DNA from: a virus
Lineage: Duplodnaviria; Heunggongvirae; Uroviricota; Caudoviricetes
Direction: 5' to 3' (one strand)
DNA length: 17,360 nt
Virus record (IMG/VR): IMGVR_UViG_2645728010_000005
The notes beneath the pieces were generated by a model. That model made no database searches, was not told where the DNA came from, and worked only from the letters and a program-made list of their open reading frames with translations. Numbering within the stretch: position 1 is the stretch's first letter; every line of letters begins with the position of its first letter. The translations under genes were made by a program, and so were the position numbers. Of this stretch, positions 4,201-17,360 are shown piece after piece.

Positions 4201-4494
4201 ATGAAAAAAATGTTGTTTTCTGCCGCTCTGGCAATGCTTATTACAGGATGTGCTCAACAGACGTTTACTGTTGGAAACAAACCGACAGCAGTAACACCAA
4301 AGGAAACCATCACCCATCACTTCTTCGTTTCGGGAATTGGACAGGAGAAAACTGTTGATGCAGCCAAAATTTGTGGCGGCGCAGAAAATGTTGTTAAAAC
4401 AGAAACCCAGCAAACATTCGTAAATGGATTGCTCGGTTTTATTACTTTAGGCATTTATACTCCGCTGGAAGCGCGTGTGTATTGCTCACAATAA
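4201..4494 (+). CDS. bor: Bor lipoprotein (serum-resistance, lysogenic-conversion protein)
   Basis: ATG 4201 with AGGA upstream; 97 aa MKKMLFSAALAMLITGCAQQTFTV... with lipobox LITGC. Near-identical to lambda Bor; opposite strand to the lysis genes, as in lambda. Confidence 0.9.
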   Translation: MKKMLFSAALAMLITGCAQQTFTVGNKPTAVTPKETITHHFFVSGIGQEKTVDAAKICGGAENVVKTETQQTFVNGLLGFITLGIYTPLEARVYCSQ

Positions 4495-4525
4495 TTGCAT
4501 GAGTTGCCCATCGATATGGGCAGCT

Positions 4526-4987
4526 CTATCTGCACTGCTCATTAATATACTTCTGGGTTCCTTCCAGTTGTTTTTGCATAGTGATCAGCCTCTCTCTGAG
4601 GGTGAAATAATCCCGTTCAGCGGTGTCTGCCAGTCGGGGGGAGGCTGCATTATCCACGCCGGAGGCGGTGGTGGCTTCACGCACTGACTGACAGACTGCT
4701 TTGATGTGCAACCGACGACGACCAGCGGCAACATCATCACGCAGAGCATCATTTTCAGCTTTCGCATTAGCTAACTCCTTCGTGTATTTTTCATCCAGTG
4801 CAGCAACATCACGCTGGCGCATCTGCATGTCAGTAATTGCCGCGTTCGCCAGCTTCAGTTCTCTGGCATTTTTGTCGCGCTGGGCTTTGTAGGTAATGGC
4901 GTTATCACGGTAATGATTAACAGCCCATGACAGGCAGACGATGATGCAGATAACCAGAGCGGAGATAATCGCGGTTACTCTGTTCAT
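4526..4987 (-). CDS. rzpD: Spanin, inner-membrane subunit Rz (i-spanin)
   Basis: [55 protein letters not shown]..., 153 aa with an N-terminal TM helix. The ATG overlaps the endolysin stop (ATGA). Confidence 0.85.
4585..4767 (-). CDS. rzoD: Spanin, outer-membrane lipoprotein subunit Rz1 (o-spanin), embedded in the +1 frame of Rz
   Basis: 60 aa [24 protein letters not shown]... with lipobox VVGC and a proline-rich core ([15 protein letters not shown]); lies entirely inside Rz. Confidence 0.8.
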
Positions 4988-14025: not shown

Positions 14026-14358
14026 TTAATGTGGTGTGCTTCGTGACAATAAATTAATAACCAACACACCGGCACAAATCAACATCATGCCTATAATGGC
14101 TGGCAGGTCCAGCCGTTGGCCGAAAAATCCCCATAACAGTAAGCTAATCAGGACAATACCGACTCCTGACCAGATACCATAAGCAATCCCTGTAGGAATA
14201 TAAGCCAGCGTCTGAGCTAATAACCAGAATGATGCACAATAACAAATAATTGTACCAACAGATGGCCATAACCGTGTAAAACCTTCTGAAAACTTCATTA
14301 AGGTTGTACCAATGACCTCTGCAAGTATTGCACCACCAAGATAAATATAAGGGTTCAT
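14026..14358 (-). CDS. emrE: EmrE small multidrug resistance (SMR) efflux transporter
   Basis: ATG 14358; 110 aa MNPYIYLGGAILAEVIGTTLMKFSEGFTRLWPSVGTIICYCASFWLLAQTLAYIPTGIAYGIWSGVGIVLISLL..., four TM helices with the conserved membrane Glu14. The track ORF has an 18-codon upstream extension. Confidence 0.95.
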   Translation of the reverse strand: MNPYIYLGGAILAEVIGTTLMKFSEGFTRLWPSVGTIICYCASFWLLAQTLAYIPTGIAYGIWSGVGIVLISLLLWGFFGQRLDLPAIIGMMLICAGVLVINLLSRSTPH

Positions 14359-14697
14359 AGCATATTCTTTCCTGTTCAAACTGGAGAGAATTGTACTACA
14401 GTTTGAACTCAACTCACCTGTTTCATCATTGTGTTCCCATTGATGTTCTTTTATATACCCTCAGTACCCGTTTCATCGCGGCACTCTGGCGACACTCCTT
14501 AAAAATCAGATTCGTGCTCACCTTTCCTTCCCGTTCTTCTCTGGTAGCGAACCGGTAATACACCGTTCGCCAGACCTTACCATCAACGACCAGGATTCCT
14601 GCCCGCGCCATTTTAGCCGCAGCCTGATTTATGCTGGTTACGGTTGCACCTGTTGGCCCGCATGTTCTGGTACAAGTTGGTAACCAACCAGTAAGCA

Positions 14698-15063
14698 ATG
14701 GGATATGCCTCTGGTTATGTCTGGTTGAATCCACCATACAGCAATATTTCCCCTTTTGTGAAAAAGGCAGCCACTGAAAACAAATTCAGCAGTGTGGGAT
14801 GTGTAATGTTATTACCTGCTGACACATCTGTCGGATGGTTTCATGAAGCGATACAAACCGCCAGTGAGGTCAGATTCATCACGGCAGGACGACTGGCATT
14901 TATTAACCCACTCACCGGGAAACACGTCAGTGGAAATAATAAAGGCTCGATGCTCATTATCTGGCACCCATACCCCCGTACACACTGCCACTTTACGACC
15001 GTTGATCGTGGAGAGTTGATGGCGTTCGGCTCAAGGATTCTTGCCCGTCGGGAGGCTGCATGA
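14698..15063 (+). pseudogene. Phage Dam-type N6-adenine DNA methyltransferase, probably a 5'-truncated remnant
   Basis: 121 aa MGYASGYVWLNPPYSNISPFVKKAATENKFSSVGCVMLLPADTSVGWFHEA...; the NPPY catalytic motif sits at residues 11..14 and an in-frame TAA lies 4 nt upstream of the ATG. In the phage Dam family as I recall it, about 60 aa precede this motif. Confidence 0.5.
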
Positions 15064-15139
15064 CAACCACGGAATGCATTTTTCTGGCAGCGGGCTTCAT
15101 ATTCTGTGTGCTTATGCTTGCCGACATGGGACTTGTTCA

Positions 15140-15355
15140 ATGACACCTCAGCAGGAAAACGCCCTTCGCAGCATAGCCCGTCAGGCTAATTCTGAAATCA
15201 AAAAAGCCAGACAGCAGTTTCCGGATAAAAACGTCGATGACATTTGCCGTAGCGTACTGAAGAAGCACCGCGAAACGGTAACGCTGATGGGATTCACACC
15301 GACTCATTTAAGCCTGGCGATCGGCATGTTAAACGGCGTCTTTAAGGAGCGATGA
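15140..15355 (+). CDS. Hypothetical small early-left phage protein (71 aa from ATG 15140; the track ORF starts at 15041)
   Basis: Open frame MTPQQENALRSIARQANSEIKKARQQFPDKNVDDICRSVLKKHRETVTLMGFTPTHLSLAIGMLNGVFKER; start site uncertain; no family recognised. Confidence 0.3.
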   Translation: MTPQQENALRSIARQANSEIKKARQQFPDKNVDDICRSVLKKHRETVTLMGFTPTHLSLAIGMLNGVFKER

Positions 15356-15453
15356 ACATGAAAAGCAAAATCATCAGGGAGCTACAGGCTCCTTTTTTAT
15401 TATTCGCATTCACCCTCAAGCGTATTAACCAACAATTCAGGGATTAATGGAAG

Positions 15454-15672
15454 ATGGCAGACATCATTGATTCAGCATCAGAAATCGAAGAATTACAGCG
15501 CAATACAGCAATAAAAATGCGTCGTCTGAACCACCAGGTTATATCTGCCACTCATTGTTGTGAGTGTGGCGATCCCATAGATGAACGAAGACGCCTGGCC
15601 GTTCAGGGTTGTCGGACTTGTGCAAGCTGCCAGGAGGAGATCGAACTTAAGAACAAACAATGGGGATTGTGA
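15454..15672 (+). CDS. TraR/DksA-family C4 zinc-finger protein (phage-encoded)
   Basis: 72 aa with two CxxC pairs (HCCECGDPID...GCRTCASCQ) at TraR-like spacing. Confidence 0.6.
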   Translation: MADIIDSASEIEELQRNTAIKMRRLNHQVISATHCCECGDPIDERRRLAVQGCRTCASCQEEIELKNKQWGL

Positions 15673-15719
15673 TGGCCTCAAAGCAGCAAATTTCAACATC
15701 GTCCAACTGAGGTGTAAAA

Positions 15720-15998
15720 ATGTTCAGAATCATTTTGCCTAACACCTGGTACGTCGACCACCACGGCACTCCCTGCAAAATCCTGCGTTCTACCCACAAC
15801 AAAGTTCACTACATCCGAAAAGGCAGAACATGTATCGCCAGCATGTTCCGCTTTAATCATGACTTTGAACCTGTGAATAAAGCTGATGCAGATCGGATAG
15901 CAGAAGAGATCGAAACGGCAGAACACATTAAGAAGTTACGTGACATGCGTTCAAAAAGCAGAGGTAACCATGGAATCATACAGCCTCACACTCGATGA
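15720..15998 (+). CDS. Hypothetical early-left phage protein (92 aa)
   Basis: ATG 15720 with SD GAGGTG; MFRIILPNTWYVDHHGTPCKILRSTHNKVHYIRKGRTCIASMFRFNHDFEPVNKADADRIAEEIETAEHIKKLRD...; no family recognised with confidence. Confidence 0.4.
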   Translation: MFRIILPNTWYVDHHGTPCKILRSTHNKVHYIRKGRTCIASMFRFNHDFEPVNKADADRIAEEIETAEHIKKLRDMRSKSRGNHGIIQPHTR

Positions 15999-16341
15999 GG
16001 CCTGTCAGTTTCTTAAGATATCCAGACCAACCGCCACCAACTGGATACGAACAGGCCGCCTACAGGCAACACGTAAAGATCCAACCAAGCCAAAATCTCC
16101 TTACCTCACAACACGGCAAGCCTGCATTGCGGCGCTTCAGTCTCCGCTGCATACTGTCCAGGTGAGCGCGGGTGATGGCATAACAGAGGAAAGAAAATGT
16201 CACTCTTCCGCAGAAATGAAATATGGTATGCCTCGTATTCGCTCCCGGGCGGGAAACGAATTAAGGAATCTCTTGGCACAAAGGACAAGCGGCAAGCTCA
16301 GGAGTTGCACGACAAGCGAAAAGCAGAACTCTGGCGAGTAG
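15970..16341 (+). CDS. xis: Excisionase / AlpA-like HTH DNA-binding protein (extent uncertain; overlaps the integrase start by ~145 nt)
   Basis: ATG 15970 with SD GAGGT; N-terminus [36 protein letters not shown] is a typical AlpA/Xis-type HTH; the C-terminal ~45 codons overlap int in another frame. Confidence 0.5.
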
Positions 16342-17360
16342 AAAAGCTAGGGGATTTACCTGATGTCACTTTTGAAGAGGCCTGCCTAAGATGGCTTGAG
16401 GAAAAAGCTGATAAAAAATCTCTCGATTCAGATAAAAGCCGGATTGAGTTCTGGCTTGAACATTTTGAGGGTATAAGGCTTAAAGATATCTCGGAGGCAA
16501 AGATTTACTCTGCTGTAAGCAGAATGCATAACAGAAAGACGAAAGAAATATGGAAACAGAAAGTTCAGGCCGCCATCAGGAAAGGTAAAGAACTGCCTGT
16601 TTATGAACCAAAGCCAGTACCAACTCAGACAAAGGCAAAGCATCTTGCCATGATAAAGGCCATTCTCCGTGCTGCAGAACGCGACTGGAAGTGGCTGGAA
16701 AAAGCGCCTGTCATCAAGATACCAGCGGTCAGAAACAAGCGAGTCAGATGGCTGGAAAAGGAGGAAGCAAAACGCCTTATTGATGAGTGCCCCGAACCAC
16801 TGAAATCTGTCGTCAAGTTTGCGCTGGCAACTGGTCTGAGAAAGTCGAACATCATAAATCTGGAATGGCAACAAATCGACATGCAGCGACGAGTTGCCTG
16901 GGTGAATCCAGAAGAGAGCAAATCAAACCGCGCCATTGGTGTGGCGCTGAACGATACCGCCTGTAAAGTGTTGCGTGATCAAATAGGCAAGCATCACAAA
17001 TGGGTGTTTGTACATACCAAGGCGGCTAAGCGAGCAGATGGAACATCAACGCCTGCGGTCAGGAAGATGCGCATCGACAGCAAGACATCATGGCTATCAG
17101 CTTGTCGTCGTGCAGGAATTGAAGATTTCCGTTTCCATGACCTCAGACACACCTGGGCAAGCTGGCTGATTCAGTCAGGCGTCCCATTATCAGTGCTTCA
17201 GGAAATGGGCGGATGGGAGTCCATAGAAATGGTTCGTAGGTATGCTCACCTTGCGCCTAATCATTTGACAGAGCATGCGAGGAAAATAGACGACATTTTT
17301 GGTGATAATGTCCCAAATATGTCCCACTCTGGAATTATGGAGGATATAAAGAAGGCGTAA
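16197..17360 (+). CDS. intD: Tyrosine-type phage integrase (DLP12 IntD-like)
   Basis: 387 aa [46 protein letters not shown]...; C-terminal catalytic box ...[42 protein letters not shown] (conserved H-x-x-R and Tyr). Stop codon is the last 3 nt of the window. Confidence 0.95.

Follow-up and report, generated by a model that had tools for sequence, protein, structure and literature searches.

We propose that the three small plus-strand genes lying between a truncated Dam gene and xis in the window (the whole 17,360-nucleotide stretch that was analysed) are the preserved end of an early-left (pL) operon, that the second of them encodes a TraR-type RNA polymerase (RNAP) binder, Orf73, and that the genes are orphaned, an explanation that as a whole we regard as highly probable. 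The block would derive from a lambdoid phage resembling PhiR30_1, as the distal part of its pL operon on the int side, and would have survived intact within DLP12, a decayed prophage of E. coli strains of the B/C type, with the gene order being 27-aa membrane peptide, Orf61, short ORF with a terminator-like hairpin, Orf73, DUF4222, xis and int. The features of the region, with positions in the window, are as follows.

14698..15063, plus strand: remnant of Dam (DNA N6-adenine methyltransferase), 121 aa, without about 59 N-terminal residues; left border of the block
15057..15636, plus strand: mosaic module with about 98% DNA identity to lambda orf61-orf73, from alignments (179 phage records at 95-99%)
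15060..15143, plus strand: hydrophobic peptide ORF, 27 aa, MTTTECIFLAAGFIFCVLMLADMGLVQ, GRAVY 1.62; probable small gene
15140..15355, plus strand: Orf61 homolog, 71 aa, the intact form of lambda orf61, from phrog_303 and the lambda alignment
15352..15447, plus strand: candidate ORF of 31 codons, or 29 codons from ATG 15358, between orf61 and orf73
15376..15404, plus strand: intrinsic-terminator-like hairpin from the terminator scan, with an 8-bp stem and a 3-nt loop, then TTTTTTATTATT
15454..15672, plus strand: TraR-family protein, 72 aa, lambda Orf73 ortholog, with N-terminal helix, zinc site and Arg pair
15720..15998, plus strand: DUF4222 protein, 92 aa, a distant subfamily of the RgdR family; its last 29 nt overlap xis
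15970..16341, plus strand: xis, excisionase-like HTH protein, sharing 145 nt with int; bounds the block on the right
16197..17360, plus strand: intD, the DLP12 integrase (REL606 annotation), 99.8% identical to K-12 intD

Judged by its sequence, the window is the int-proximal end of the cryptic prophage DLP12 in its E. coli B/C version, being 100% identical to the DLP12 of REL606 except for a 272-bp deletion that lies away from the three-gene block. In the source genome tRNA-Arg argU comes after intD. In REL606 PGAP annotates exactly three CDS here, corresponding to the 71-, 72- and 92-aa ORFs; it labels the Dam fragment as 'incomplete, missing N-terminus' and shows xis merely as a 66-nt pseudogene fragment. 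The Dam fragment, which adjoins a P/ren remnant of the opposite strand, matches Pfam PF05869 at E 4.9e-35 over profile positions 60-168 of 169. For xis, residues 1-77 match PF12728 HTH_17 (E 4.4e-09), phrog_2907 excisionase (E 4e-33) and TIGR01764 (29.3 bits vs a cut-off of 28.8), and its ORF reaches 16341, into int, which corrects an earlier reading. The first-pass annotation had described three intact plus-strand ORFs of 71, 72 and 92 aa between a truncated Dam and xis, and the list of ORFs bears this description out.

The same annotation took the genes to be early-left accessory genes of a lambdoid phage, which agrees with the equal gene order of phage PhiR30_1 (PV340558), namely cI ... kil-gam-bet-exo-orf60a-Dam-orf61-TraR-DUF4222-int. 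The order Dam-orf61-TraR-DUF4222-(xis)-int is thus common to the two, and window positions 15041-15460 have 98.6% DNA identity to PhiR30_1, where the homolog of the 71-aa gene is annotated as orf61 and the DUF4222 gene as 'FIG00639352'. The difference is that PhiR30_1, being a complete phage, has Dam at full length in the equivalent position and has exo, bet, gam, kil and cI upstream, whereas the window retains the last 121 Dam codons and nothing farther upstream. A non-prophage origin of the locus is ruled out by the REL606 annotation and the PhiR30_1 gene order. It is noted that the module shared with lambda has its left joint at the ATG of the 27-aa ORF and its right joint within the last ~12 codons of orf73.

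That the three ORFs are genes is argued by several lines of evidence. All of them match curated families, above threshold or at very low E; the searches of family profiles proposed in the first-pass annotation have thus given each a family (orf61, TraR and DUF4222, respectively). Among about 100 phage variants, third codon positions hold 24 of the 45 variable sites in the 71-aa gene and 25 of the 48 in the 72-aa gene (P ~0.005 for each). Together, the family matches, the CDS called by PGAP and the third-position excess of the 71- and 72-aa genes imply that the ORFs did not arise by chance. The Shine-Dalgarno sequence is weak for the 71- and 72-aa ORFs, and the good one ascribed to the 92-aa ORF is there, as GAGGTG located 5 nt upstream. 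The earlier statement that the role of the genes was unknown and that the neighbours of the zinc-finger gene had no assignable family does not stand, with the 71-aa protein being orf61 (~98% DNA identity) and the 92-aa protein belonging to Pfam DUF4222.

From sequence comparison, the 72-aa protein is a true TraR-family member and the ortholog of lambda Orf73, with which it shares 64 of 71 residues (90%). It scores 35.2 bits on PF01258 (cut-off 24.9) and E 2.8e-25 on phrog_54, and PGAP names it 'TraR/DksA family transcriptional regulator'. By HMMER its residues 1-69 align to residues 1-71 of the F-plasmid TraR chains 5w1s_M and 6n57_M, and it is, as in TraR, a single short chain (72 aa) without the DksA coiled coil. 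Its cysteines are at 35, 36, 38, 53, 56 and 59, among which C35/C38/C56/C59 form a C4 site, CxxC-(17)-CxxC, that aligns to the zinc ligands C37/C40/C58/C61 of TraR, in line with the TraR-like zinc finger that was noticed at first. The absence of the conserved acidic tip residues had been named as a finding that would count against the family; the DxxDxA motif is present as M-A-D3-I-I-D6-S-A8, so that the TraR assignment stands. The pair R46/R47 aligns to R48/R49 of TraR and lies in an ExxRL motif as in lambda Orf73, ExxRL being the form in lambda Orf73 and ExxRK that in F TraR (PMC8614690). The residues D3, D6, A8, C35, C38, C56, C59, R46 and R47 are all invariant in the alignment with lambda Orf73 and F TraR. 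The protein misses the cut-off of NCBIfam TIGR02419 (C4_traR_proteo), with 54.6 vs 59.7 bits, at E 1.2e-14 and over profile positions 1-64 of 64; this near miss, which concerns a subfamily model, does not outweigh the 90% identity to a tested member.

The likeness to lambda Orf73 extends to the neighbourhood, where orf61, the 27-aa ORF and the 31-aa ORF lie upstream in both, and to the DNA, which is about 98% identical as far as codon 61. By contrast, the mosaic joint being inside the gene of the window, the last 12 residues read EEIELKNKQWGL here and EDLELISKQRGSK in lambda Orf73, with 7 of the 12 positions differing. Residues 60-72 have the right length for the C-terminal helix, and since this predicted helix, which would contact beta Si1, differs from that of lambda Orf73, the potency may differ too. 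Two further differences from lambda are that the downstream neighbours are DUF4222-xis-int here and ea22 there, and that the prophage holding the copy in the window is defective and lacks pL. F-plasmid TraR (PDB 5w1s, and 6n57/6n58 with RNAP) is similar in length (73 vs 72 aa) and architecture and aligns end to end, with D3, D6, A8, the four cysteines and the Arg pair in common; it differs in having only 32% identity, in having K50 where the window protein and lambda Orf73 have L48, and in being encoded in a plasmid tra operon rather than a phage pL operon.

That phage TraR homologs bind RNAP and reprogram the host, as the first-pass annotation stated, is known experimentally for lambda Orf73, which inhibits rrnB P1 with an IC50 of ~50 nM, competes with DksA for RNAP, slows host growth, raises phage yield and burst size and complements a dksA deletion, and which requires DxxDxA, with either D3N or D6N abolishing the activity (PMC9239242). 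Since the 72-aa protein is 90% identical to lambda Orf73 and has kept all functional motifs, we infer for it the mechanism shown for lambda Orf73 and F TraR, by which it would bind the RNAP secondary channel, inhibit rrnB P1 and complement dksA. In this mechanism, Orf73 would bind RNAP without DNA, with its N-terminal helix entering the secondary channel so that D3, D6 and A8 come near the active site, with its Zn-ribbon (C35, C38, C56, C59; R46/R47) docking on the beta-prime rim helices and Si3, and with its C-terminal helix touching Si1 of the beta lobe. The outcome would be a ppGpp-independent mimicry of DksA plus ppGpp, with promoters of rRNA and ribosomal-protein genes being inhibited, host growth being slowed and, in a live phage, burst size being increased.

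The 71-aa protein matches phrog_303 at E 4.7e-36 and has a pI of 10. In lambda, orf61 is broken by one extra A (A7 vs A6 at window positions 15199-15204), and the two lambda fragments when joined give the 71-aa sequence. Among 121 sampled variants, the window counted, the frame is intact in 113, and A7 occurs in lambda and three others. The DNA of orf61 is 95-99% identical in 179 phage records, and in lambda and the Stx phages Phi24B and 933W the gene lies directly upstream of orf73 as it does here. The Stx-phage form is intact as in the window, whereas the lambda form is frameshifted; both differ from the window in having orf63, rather than Dam, as the upstream neighbour. The AF2 model (pLDDT 87) has three helices, at residues 3-26, 32-49 and 54-64, and Orf61 is accordingly described here as a predicted basic three-helix protein. 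In Phi24B, orf61 has a mild pro-lytic phenotype in lysogenisation, induction and adsorption (PMC6213356), and the phenotype is greater in Phi24B, where the gene is intact, than in lambda, where it is truncated (PMC6213356, PMC8614690). As a guess, Orf61 would bind to nucleic acid or to another protein as its partner.

Many proteins with the same or nearly the same sequence carry the source name 'cell division protein ZapA', including some PGAP records, and there is a weak Pfam match to ZapA at E 0.014 over residues 3-35. Yet this match reaches 16.1 bits against the cut-off of 23.8 for PF05164 and covers 33 of 88 profile positions, and the gene is the homolog of lambda orf61, so that we hold a ZapA-like cell-division role to be hardly credible. 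The sole PDB sequence matches of the 71-aa protein, to ankyrin/DARPin proteins, stem from one G-x-TP-x-H-L-x-x-A-x-G-like motif summed over repeated targets; they are taken as coincidental, since a lone ankyrin repeat cannot fold and the model of the protein is a three-helix bundle.

The start of Orf61 deserves separate consideration. The ATG of the 71-aa ORF sits within a longer TTG-started ORF, 15041..15355, and the published 93-aa or 61-aa versions of Orf61 begin upstream, unlike the 71-aa start that the codon positions favour here. The region upstream of this start contains the 27-aa ORF, which is identical in lambda, has ATGA overlaps on both sides (that on the left with the Dam stop) and has GGAGG 4 nt upstream. 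In 22 unique variants its variable sites are distributed over the codon positions as 4/5/11, and the changes comprise 13 synonymous, 8 non-synonymous and 1 stop-gaining, the frame being open in 21 of the 22. In the overlapping frame, annotated as an N-terminal extension of orf61, the sites are distributed as 11/4/5 (P = 0.038). Gene callers report the 27-aa ORF as 'hypothetical protein' on 981 contigs. From these sequence features it is probably a real small gene that is translationally coupled on both sides. It may be that the N-terminal extension annotated for Orf61 of the Stx phages and lambda is noncoding and that the DNA encodes the conserved 27-aa membrane peptide instead.

The short ORF between orf61 and orf73 is a different case. 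A 29-codon ORF at 15358..15447 had been said to fit in the gap, and it does appear in the list of ORFs, there with 31 aa from 15352. AAGGAG is present 8 nt upstream of ATG 15358, the 31-codon ORF is identical in lambda, and 24 of 25 unique variants keep the frame open; the ORF is present in databases, with a CDS in some phage records, and ribosome profiling in lambda is cited in a review for a 31-aa peptide gene in the conserved region (PMC8614690). Of 102 unique variant sequences in the alignment, 64 have GTG as the first start codon of the 31-codon ORF. The variable sites show no third-position excess (7/6/9, P = 0.29), and since this codon-position test is without signal, we do not claim the ORF as a gene. 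The terminator-like hairpin lies inside it; the hairpin is found in the MFE structure of 15356-15453 (-17.9 kcal/mol, z = -1.9), and its stem is nearly invariant among 102 variants. No Rfam family was matched at E <= 1 over 14300-16400, the hairpin included.

We now consider the 92-aa protein, which has a pI of 9.9 and which scores 69.6 bits on PF13973 (cut-off 27; residues 3-53, profile positions 1-53 of 53) and E 7.7e-38 on phrog_285. A Pfam scan up to E = 1 returned DUF4222 alone and no RNAP-interaction family, and a PDB sequence search gave no match. Its subfamily is tiny: a profile of it searched against 1.84 billion representatives found 48 proteins (cluster representatives), all of at most 171 aa and with no domain fusions. 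In the model, the protein is a small five-stranded SH3/Tudor-like barrel (~10-52) followed by a long basic helix (54-81). Foldseek with this model gave nothing at E <= 0.001, with PWWP, TnsB, ribosomal eL21 and SH3 domains at the top, a list that amounts to the generic signal of small barrels.

The sole DUF4222 protein to have been studied is RgdR (ECs1581 of EHEC O157:H7, prophage Sp7/OI-51), which activates LEE1 and represses motility and whose DNA binding is non-specific, properties published for RgdR and its close variants (PMC3378721). The RGD tripeptide of RgdR matters for T3SS activation. RgdR scores 82 bits on the DUF4222 profile and resembles the 92-aa protein in its Pfam domain, in length (99 vs 92 aa), in being basic and prophage-encoded, and in its layout, with the barrel region first and a basic segment at the C-terminus. 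It differs in its location, ahead of a primase gene within a P4-like element, and in sequence, the two aligning over 75 residues with 24% identity. The RGD (RgdR residues 20-22) is missing from the window protein, which has P-N-T-W at the aligned place, just before Y11; in an alignment of 30 sequences of the subfamily, RGD never occurs at this position, where PNTW, PGSW or similar is found. With RGD absent and the identity at 24%, the function of RgdR may not transfer to the 92-aa protein. Moreover, LEE is not known from the B/C-type E. coli that harbour this DLP12 variant, so that the readout used for RgdR is not applicable there. By analogy, the most likely role of the DUF4222 protein is that it would modulate transcription pleiotropically by touching nucleic acid without sequence specificity, or by such contacts with the machinery of transcription.

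A more specific proposal is that the DUF4222 protein is a Tudor-like factor that binds RNAP as CarD, UvrD-CTD or Mfd-RID do, acting as a partner of Orf73. In a sample of 120 orf61-containing viral contigs, 48 carry both orf73 and DUF4222, and in 36 of these 48 orf73 is followed by DUF4222 after a 51-nt gap, which places the latter directly behind the gene of an RNAP binder; RapA and Spt5 are among the Foldseek matches, and RgdR, like CarD, is pleiotropic with non-specific DNA binding. Nevertheless, the protein has no sequence similarity to the Tudor/SH3-like RNAP-interaction domains (the C-terminal domain of UvrD/PcrA and the RID of CarD), the structural matches to them are non-significant with unrelated small barrels scoring nearly as well, and neither the sequence profiles nor the fusion-free set of 48 representatives points to RNAP. 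The likeness to these domains is thus a resemblance, not a membership, and we consider the proposal unlikely, while noting that DUF4222 proteins, including the EHEC regulator RgdR, may be RNAP-binding small-barrel factors.

Alternatively, the 92-aa protein could serve not transcription but site-specific recombination, as an auxiliary of Xis and Int, as could be read from the 29-nt overlap of its 3' end with the start of xis, from the order DUF4222-xis-int, and from SH3-like barrels being known in the C-terminal domains of integrases and transposases, with HIV integrase and TnsB in the Foldseek list. In the sampled contigs, many of which are short, DUF4222 is however often found with no detectable xis/int homolog nearby, and RgdR is encoded away from xis and has transcriptional phenotypes; a recombination role is therefore very unlikely in our judgement. 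We retain the pleiotropic modulation of transcription as the most likely role.

The question then arises whether the block is expressed. In the window, pL, N and cI are missing upstream of it. All three sites found by a promoter scan are on the minus strand, and their number is that expected by chance, without excess over shuffles. With pL, N, cI and the upstream genes gone and with no plus-strand promoter consensus, the genes are probably silent or only weakly read, that is, functional in sequence and orphaned. The block may also be read via read-through from the ren/P side or from a non-consensus promoter.

A further reading is that of dead cargo, by which the three ORFs would be decaying, pseudogene-like leftovers of a cryptic prophage, with neither activity nor selection in the host. 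The prophage is much decayed, with Dam truncated, P and ren as remnants and the pL/N/cI region absent; the missing plus-strand promoter consensus is consistent with this reading, as is the DLP12 of K-12, from which window positions 14695-16101 are missing entirely. A recurrent orf61'-'DUF4222 fusion protein, P0015 (27 contigs), implies that orf73 has been deleted in other strains, and databases hold many truncated or frameshifted variants of orf61 and DUF4222. On the other hand, every reading frame in the window is intact, each of the exact proteins is present on at least 1000 contigs, and the block is near-identical to inducible phages, the TraR protein having 95.8% identity to that of PhiR30_1 and 98.6% to that of phi458; besides, a lack of expression in the host does not imply that the proteins are non-functional. 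We find dead cargo less likely than not. The reading that we prefer remains that of a preserved operon end with orphaned genes.

It was also suggested in the first-pass annotation that the region may hide host-takeover or anti-defence functions. The anti-defence part finds no support in a PADLOC scan, which gave no credible match for the block; the single weak match, of the 72-aa protein to mREase_II (E 0.0024, 15 bits), seems fortuitous for a protein so rich in cysteine. The block being cut off by decay from pL, N and cI, host takeover refers to the ancestry of the genes rather than to an activity demonstrated in the present host.

Finally, we note that the main claim is largely known already, namely that phage TraR homologs, notably lambda Orf73, bind RNAP and redirect host transcription. 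What is added is that the E. coli B and C lineages (with DLP12 of the REL606 type) carry intact chromosomal orf73, orf61 and DUF4222, whereas K-12 is without them. If the genes are expressed, strain-specific physiology could differ, as an active TraR mimic would depress rRNA synthesis. If the 27-aa peptide is real, its early-left gene has for decades been wrongly taken for the N-terminal part of orf61. The DUF4222/RgdR family provides a link to virulence regulation in EHEC and, if its members do bind RNAP, orf73 and DUF4222 would together form a two-component phage module, by which host RNAP is reprogrammed from two sites, the secondary channel and the beta lobe.

The three small plus-strand ORFs between the Dam remnant and xis lie as the first-pass annotation had described them, in agreement with the ORF list and the sequence, with the features of the region as follows.

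Features of the three-gene block and its flanks, in window coordinates
14698..15063, upstream of the block: Dam methyltransferase fragment of 121 aa (Pfam Dam positions 60-168 of 169)
15060..15143, plus strand: 27-aa hydrophobic ORF, MTTTECIFLAAGFIFCVLMLADMGLVQ (sequence, variant comparison)
15140..15355, plus strand: 71-aa ORF (ORF list)
15352..15447, plus strand: 31-codon ORF, 29 codons from ATG 15358, between the 71-aa and 72-aa ORFs
15376-15404, plus strand: conserved hairpin resembling a terminator, with a T-run after it, inside the 29/31-codon ORF and between orf61 and orf73
15454..15672, plus strand: 72-aa ORF (ORF list)
15720..15998, plus strand: 92-aa ORF (ORF list)
15970-16341, plus strand: excisionase-like HTH gene, xis (ORF list, family matches)
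16197..17360, downstream of the block: integrase (ORF list, family matches)

The main element of the block, the 72-aa protein, is already known, having been characterised via its 90%-identical lambda ortholog. It matches Pfam zf-dskA_traR with 35.2 bits (cut-off 24.9) and PHROG 54 'DksA-like zinc-finger protein' with E 2.8e-25, while NCBIfam TIGR02419 gives 54.6 bits, slightly below the cut-off of 59.7. By HMMER it aligns end to end with F-plasmid TraR, for which RNAP co-structures exist (5w1s, 6n57), by tblastn it matches 488 records among the phage genomes, and it shares 64/71 residues with lambda orf73, an unannotated ORF between ea22 and orf61. It had been proposed that this zinc-finger protein is TraR-like, with the acidic tip as the residues to check. 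In the three-way alignment of the 72-aa protein, lambda Orf73 and F TraR, the tip residues D3, D6 and A8 are invariant, as are C35, C38, C56, C59, R46 and R47, and thus the proposal stands on the tip, the family matches, the TraR alignment and the lambda ortholog. In the work of Gopalkrishnan et al. (2022, PMC9239242), lambda Orf73 was shown to compete with DksA for RNAP and, without ppGpp, to inhibit rrnB P1 (IC50 ~50 nM), D3 and D6 being required. The lambda protein also complemented a dksA deletion, slowed host growth and raised phage yield.

The 72-aa protein differs notably from lambda Orf73 only in its C-terminal tail. In the DNA alignment, a mosaic joint falls at ~15637, inside the last ~12 codons of orf73, with the tail being EEIELKNKQWGL where the DUF4222 gene comes next (the window, PhiR30_1, ev087, Turner) and EDLELISKQRGSK where ea22 comes next (lambda, 933W, phi315). 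The tail thus co-varies with the downstream gene; in TraR the same helix contacts RNAP beta Si1.

The first-pass annotation could assign no family to the neighbours of this protein, which proves wrong for both. Sequence comparison identifies the 71-aa protein as the unbroken version of orf61. Over window 15057-15636 the identity to lambda is ~98%, 15041-15460 is matched at 95-99% in 179 phage records, and the 71-aa sequence combines the annotated orf61 of lambda (61 aa) with the 60-codon ORF that follows it. The split in lambda arises from one additional A in a homopolymer, A7 (lambda locus L002 ~3375, minus strand) versus A6 in the window (15199-15204); among the window and 120 viral contigs sampled, A6 is present in 113 of the 121 variants and A7 in just 4. 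This agrees with the remark that Orf61 of lambda looks truncated when set beside that of the Stx phages (Donaldson 2021, PMC8614690) and with the deletion phenotypes of orf61 being weaker in lambda than in Phi24B (PMC6213356). The name 'cell division protein ZapA', carried by many database entries for this protein, is rejected, with Pfam ZapA scoring 16.1 bits against a cut-off of 23.8, and the ankyrin/DARPin matches in the PDB sequence search look spurious, involving an ankyrin-consensus-like C-terminal motif, GFTPTHLSLAIGMLNGV, at residues 50-66.

Three ATGA overlaps connect the Dam stop with the ATG of the 27-aa ORF, the stop of the latter with the orf61 ATG, and the orf61 stop with the earlier of the two starts in the 31-codon ORF. 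Among 22 unique variants, the variable sites in the 27-aa frame fall 4/5/11 at codon positions 1/2/3, with 13 synonymous, 8 non-synonymous and 1 stop-gaining changes and the frame open in 21, versus 11/4/5 in the overlapping frame, the Orf61 N-terminal extension annotated in lambda and Stx phages (P = 0.038). This codon-position pattern is moderate evidence that the 27-aa peptide is probably a real gene and that the extension is probably not coding. It is likely that the 27-aa ORF encodes a small membrane peptide and that the start site of orf61 has long been mis-annotated. For the 29/31-codon ORF, a perfect AAGGAG lies 8 nt upstream of ATG 15358, and no codon-position signal is detected in this ORF (P = 0.29). 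According to a review (PMC8614690), ribosome profiling of lambda detected a gene for a 31-aa peptide in this region, which may correspond to the ORF at 15352..15447. This segment, with the hairpin inside it, could terminate the pL operon, act as a small gene, or do both.

The 92-aa protein, with GAGGTG read 5 nt upstream of its ATG, is a DUF4222 protein (Pfam PF13973, E 1.7e-19; PHROG 285). The sole DUF4222 protein studied is RgdR (ECs1581) of the EHEC prophage Sp7/OI-51, an activator of LEE1 and repressor of motility whose DNA binding is non-specific (PMC10877973; PMC3378721). ECs1581 carries PF13973 and is 24% identical to the 92-aa protein over 75 residues (E 4e-6). The RGD motif is absent from the 92-aa protein. 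A search of PDB sequences returned no relatives. The AF2 model (pLDDT 85, alignment of 30 sequences) predicts a small five-stranded barrel at residues ~10-52 and a long helix at 54-81, the protein having a pI of 9.9, and we call this predicted fold an SH3/Tudor-like barrel plus basic helix. Binding of the protein to RNAP is no more than a lead. With 48 cluster representatives, and no domain fusions among them, the subfamily is very small. The gene is present in 48 of the 120 orf61-carrying viral contigs, starting 51 nt past orf73 in 36 of these 48. In 27 contigs of other E. coli strains, an 83-aa protein (P0015) joins the orf61 C-terminus, MGFTPTHLSLAI, in frame to DUF4222 (LRSTHNKV...), corresponding to window ~15320-15780, which implies a deletion taking out all of orf73.

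The complete arrangement is seen in PhiR30_1, where the order is cI, kil, gam, bet, exo, orf60a, Dam, orf61, TraR, DUF4222, int, and the label 'early-left' is thus correct as ancestry. The window lacks everything upstream of the final 121 Dam codons, the adjoining P/ren remnant is on the opposite strand, and no promoter on the plus strand emerges from a consensus scan; from the sequence, we infer that the three genes are orphaned in this host. An anti-defence role, as had been suggested, is unsupported.

By megablast against complete E. coli genomes, the stretch is 100% identical to REL606, E. coli C, ATCC 8739 and others, and in the REL606 annotation it is the int-proximal end of the cryptic prophage DLP12, with the order emrE, ren, P remnant, Dam remnant, 'hypothetical protein', 'TraR/DksA family transcriptional regulator', 'DUF4222 domain-containing protein', HTH pseudogene fragment, intD and tRNA-Arg; the remainder of the window is likewise DLP12. 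The xis-like ORF runs unbroken for 123 codons and shares 145 nt with int; the PGAP annotation of REL606 has just a 66-nt HTH pseudogene fragment there. The sole difference between the window and REL606 is a 272-bp deletion at 14653/14654, within the ren/P remnant and outside the three-gene block. These 272 bp (4256-4527 of locus L001) are kept in REL606 and in 15/15 of the best-matching genomes listed. With their loss, at a junction with just 2 bp of microhomology, the start of ren and the greater part of the P remnant are gone, and a chimeric ORF of 103 aa has arisen on the minus strand (14426-14737).

By comparison with the MG1655 locus (L132), the DLP12 of K-12 lacks the whole of window 14695-16101, and a short 'exoD' pseudogene segment stands there in place of the block from Dam' through orf61, orf73 and DUF4222 to the 5' part of xis. 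This makes the three genes a feature of B/C-type strains, which a chromosomal TraR homolog sets apart from K-12.
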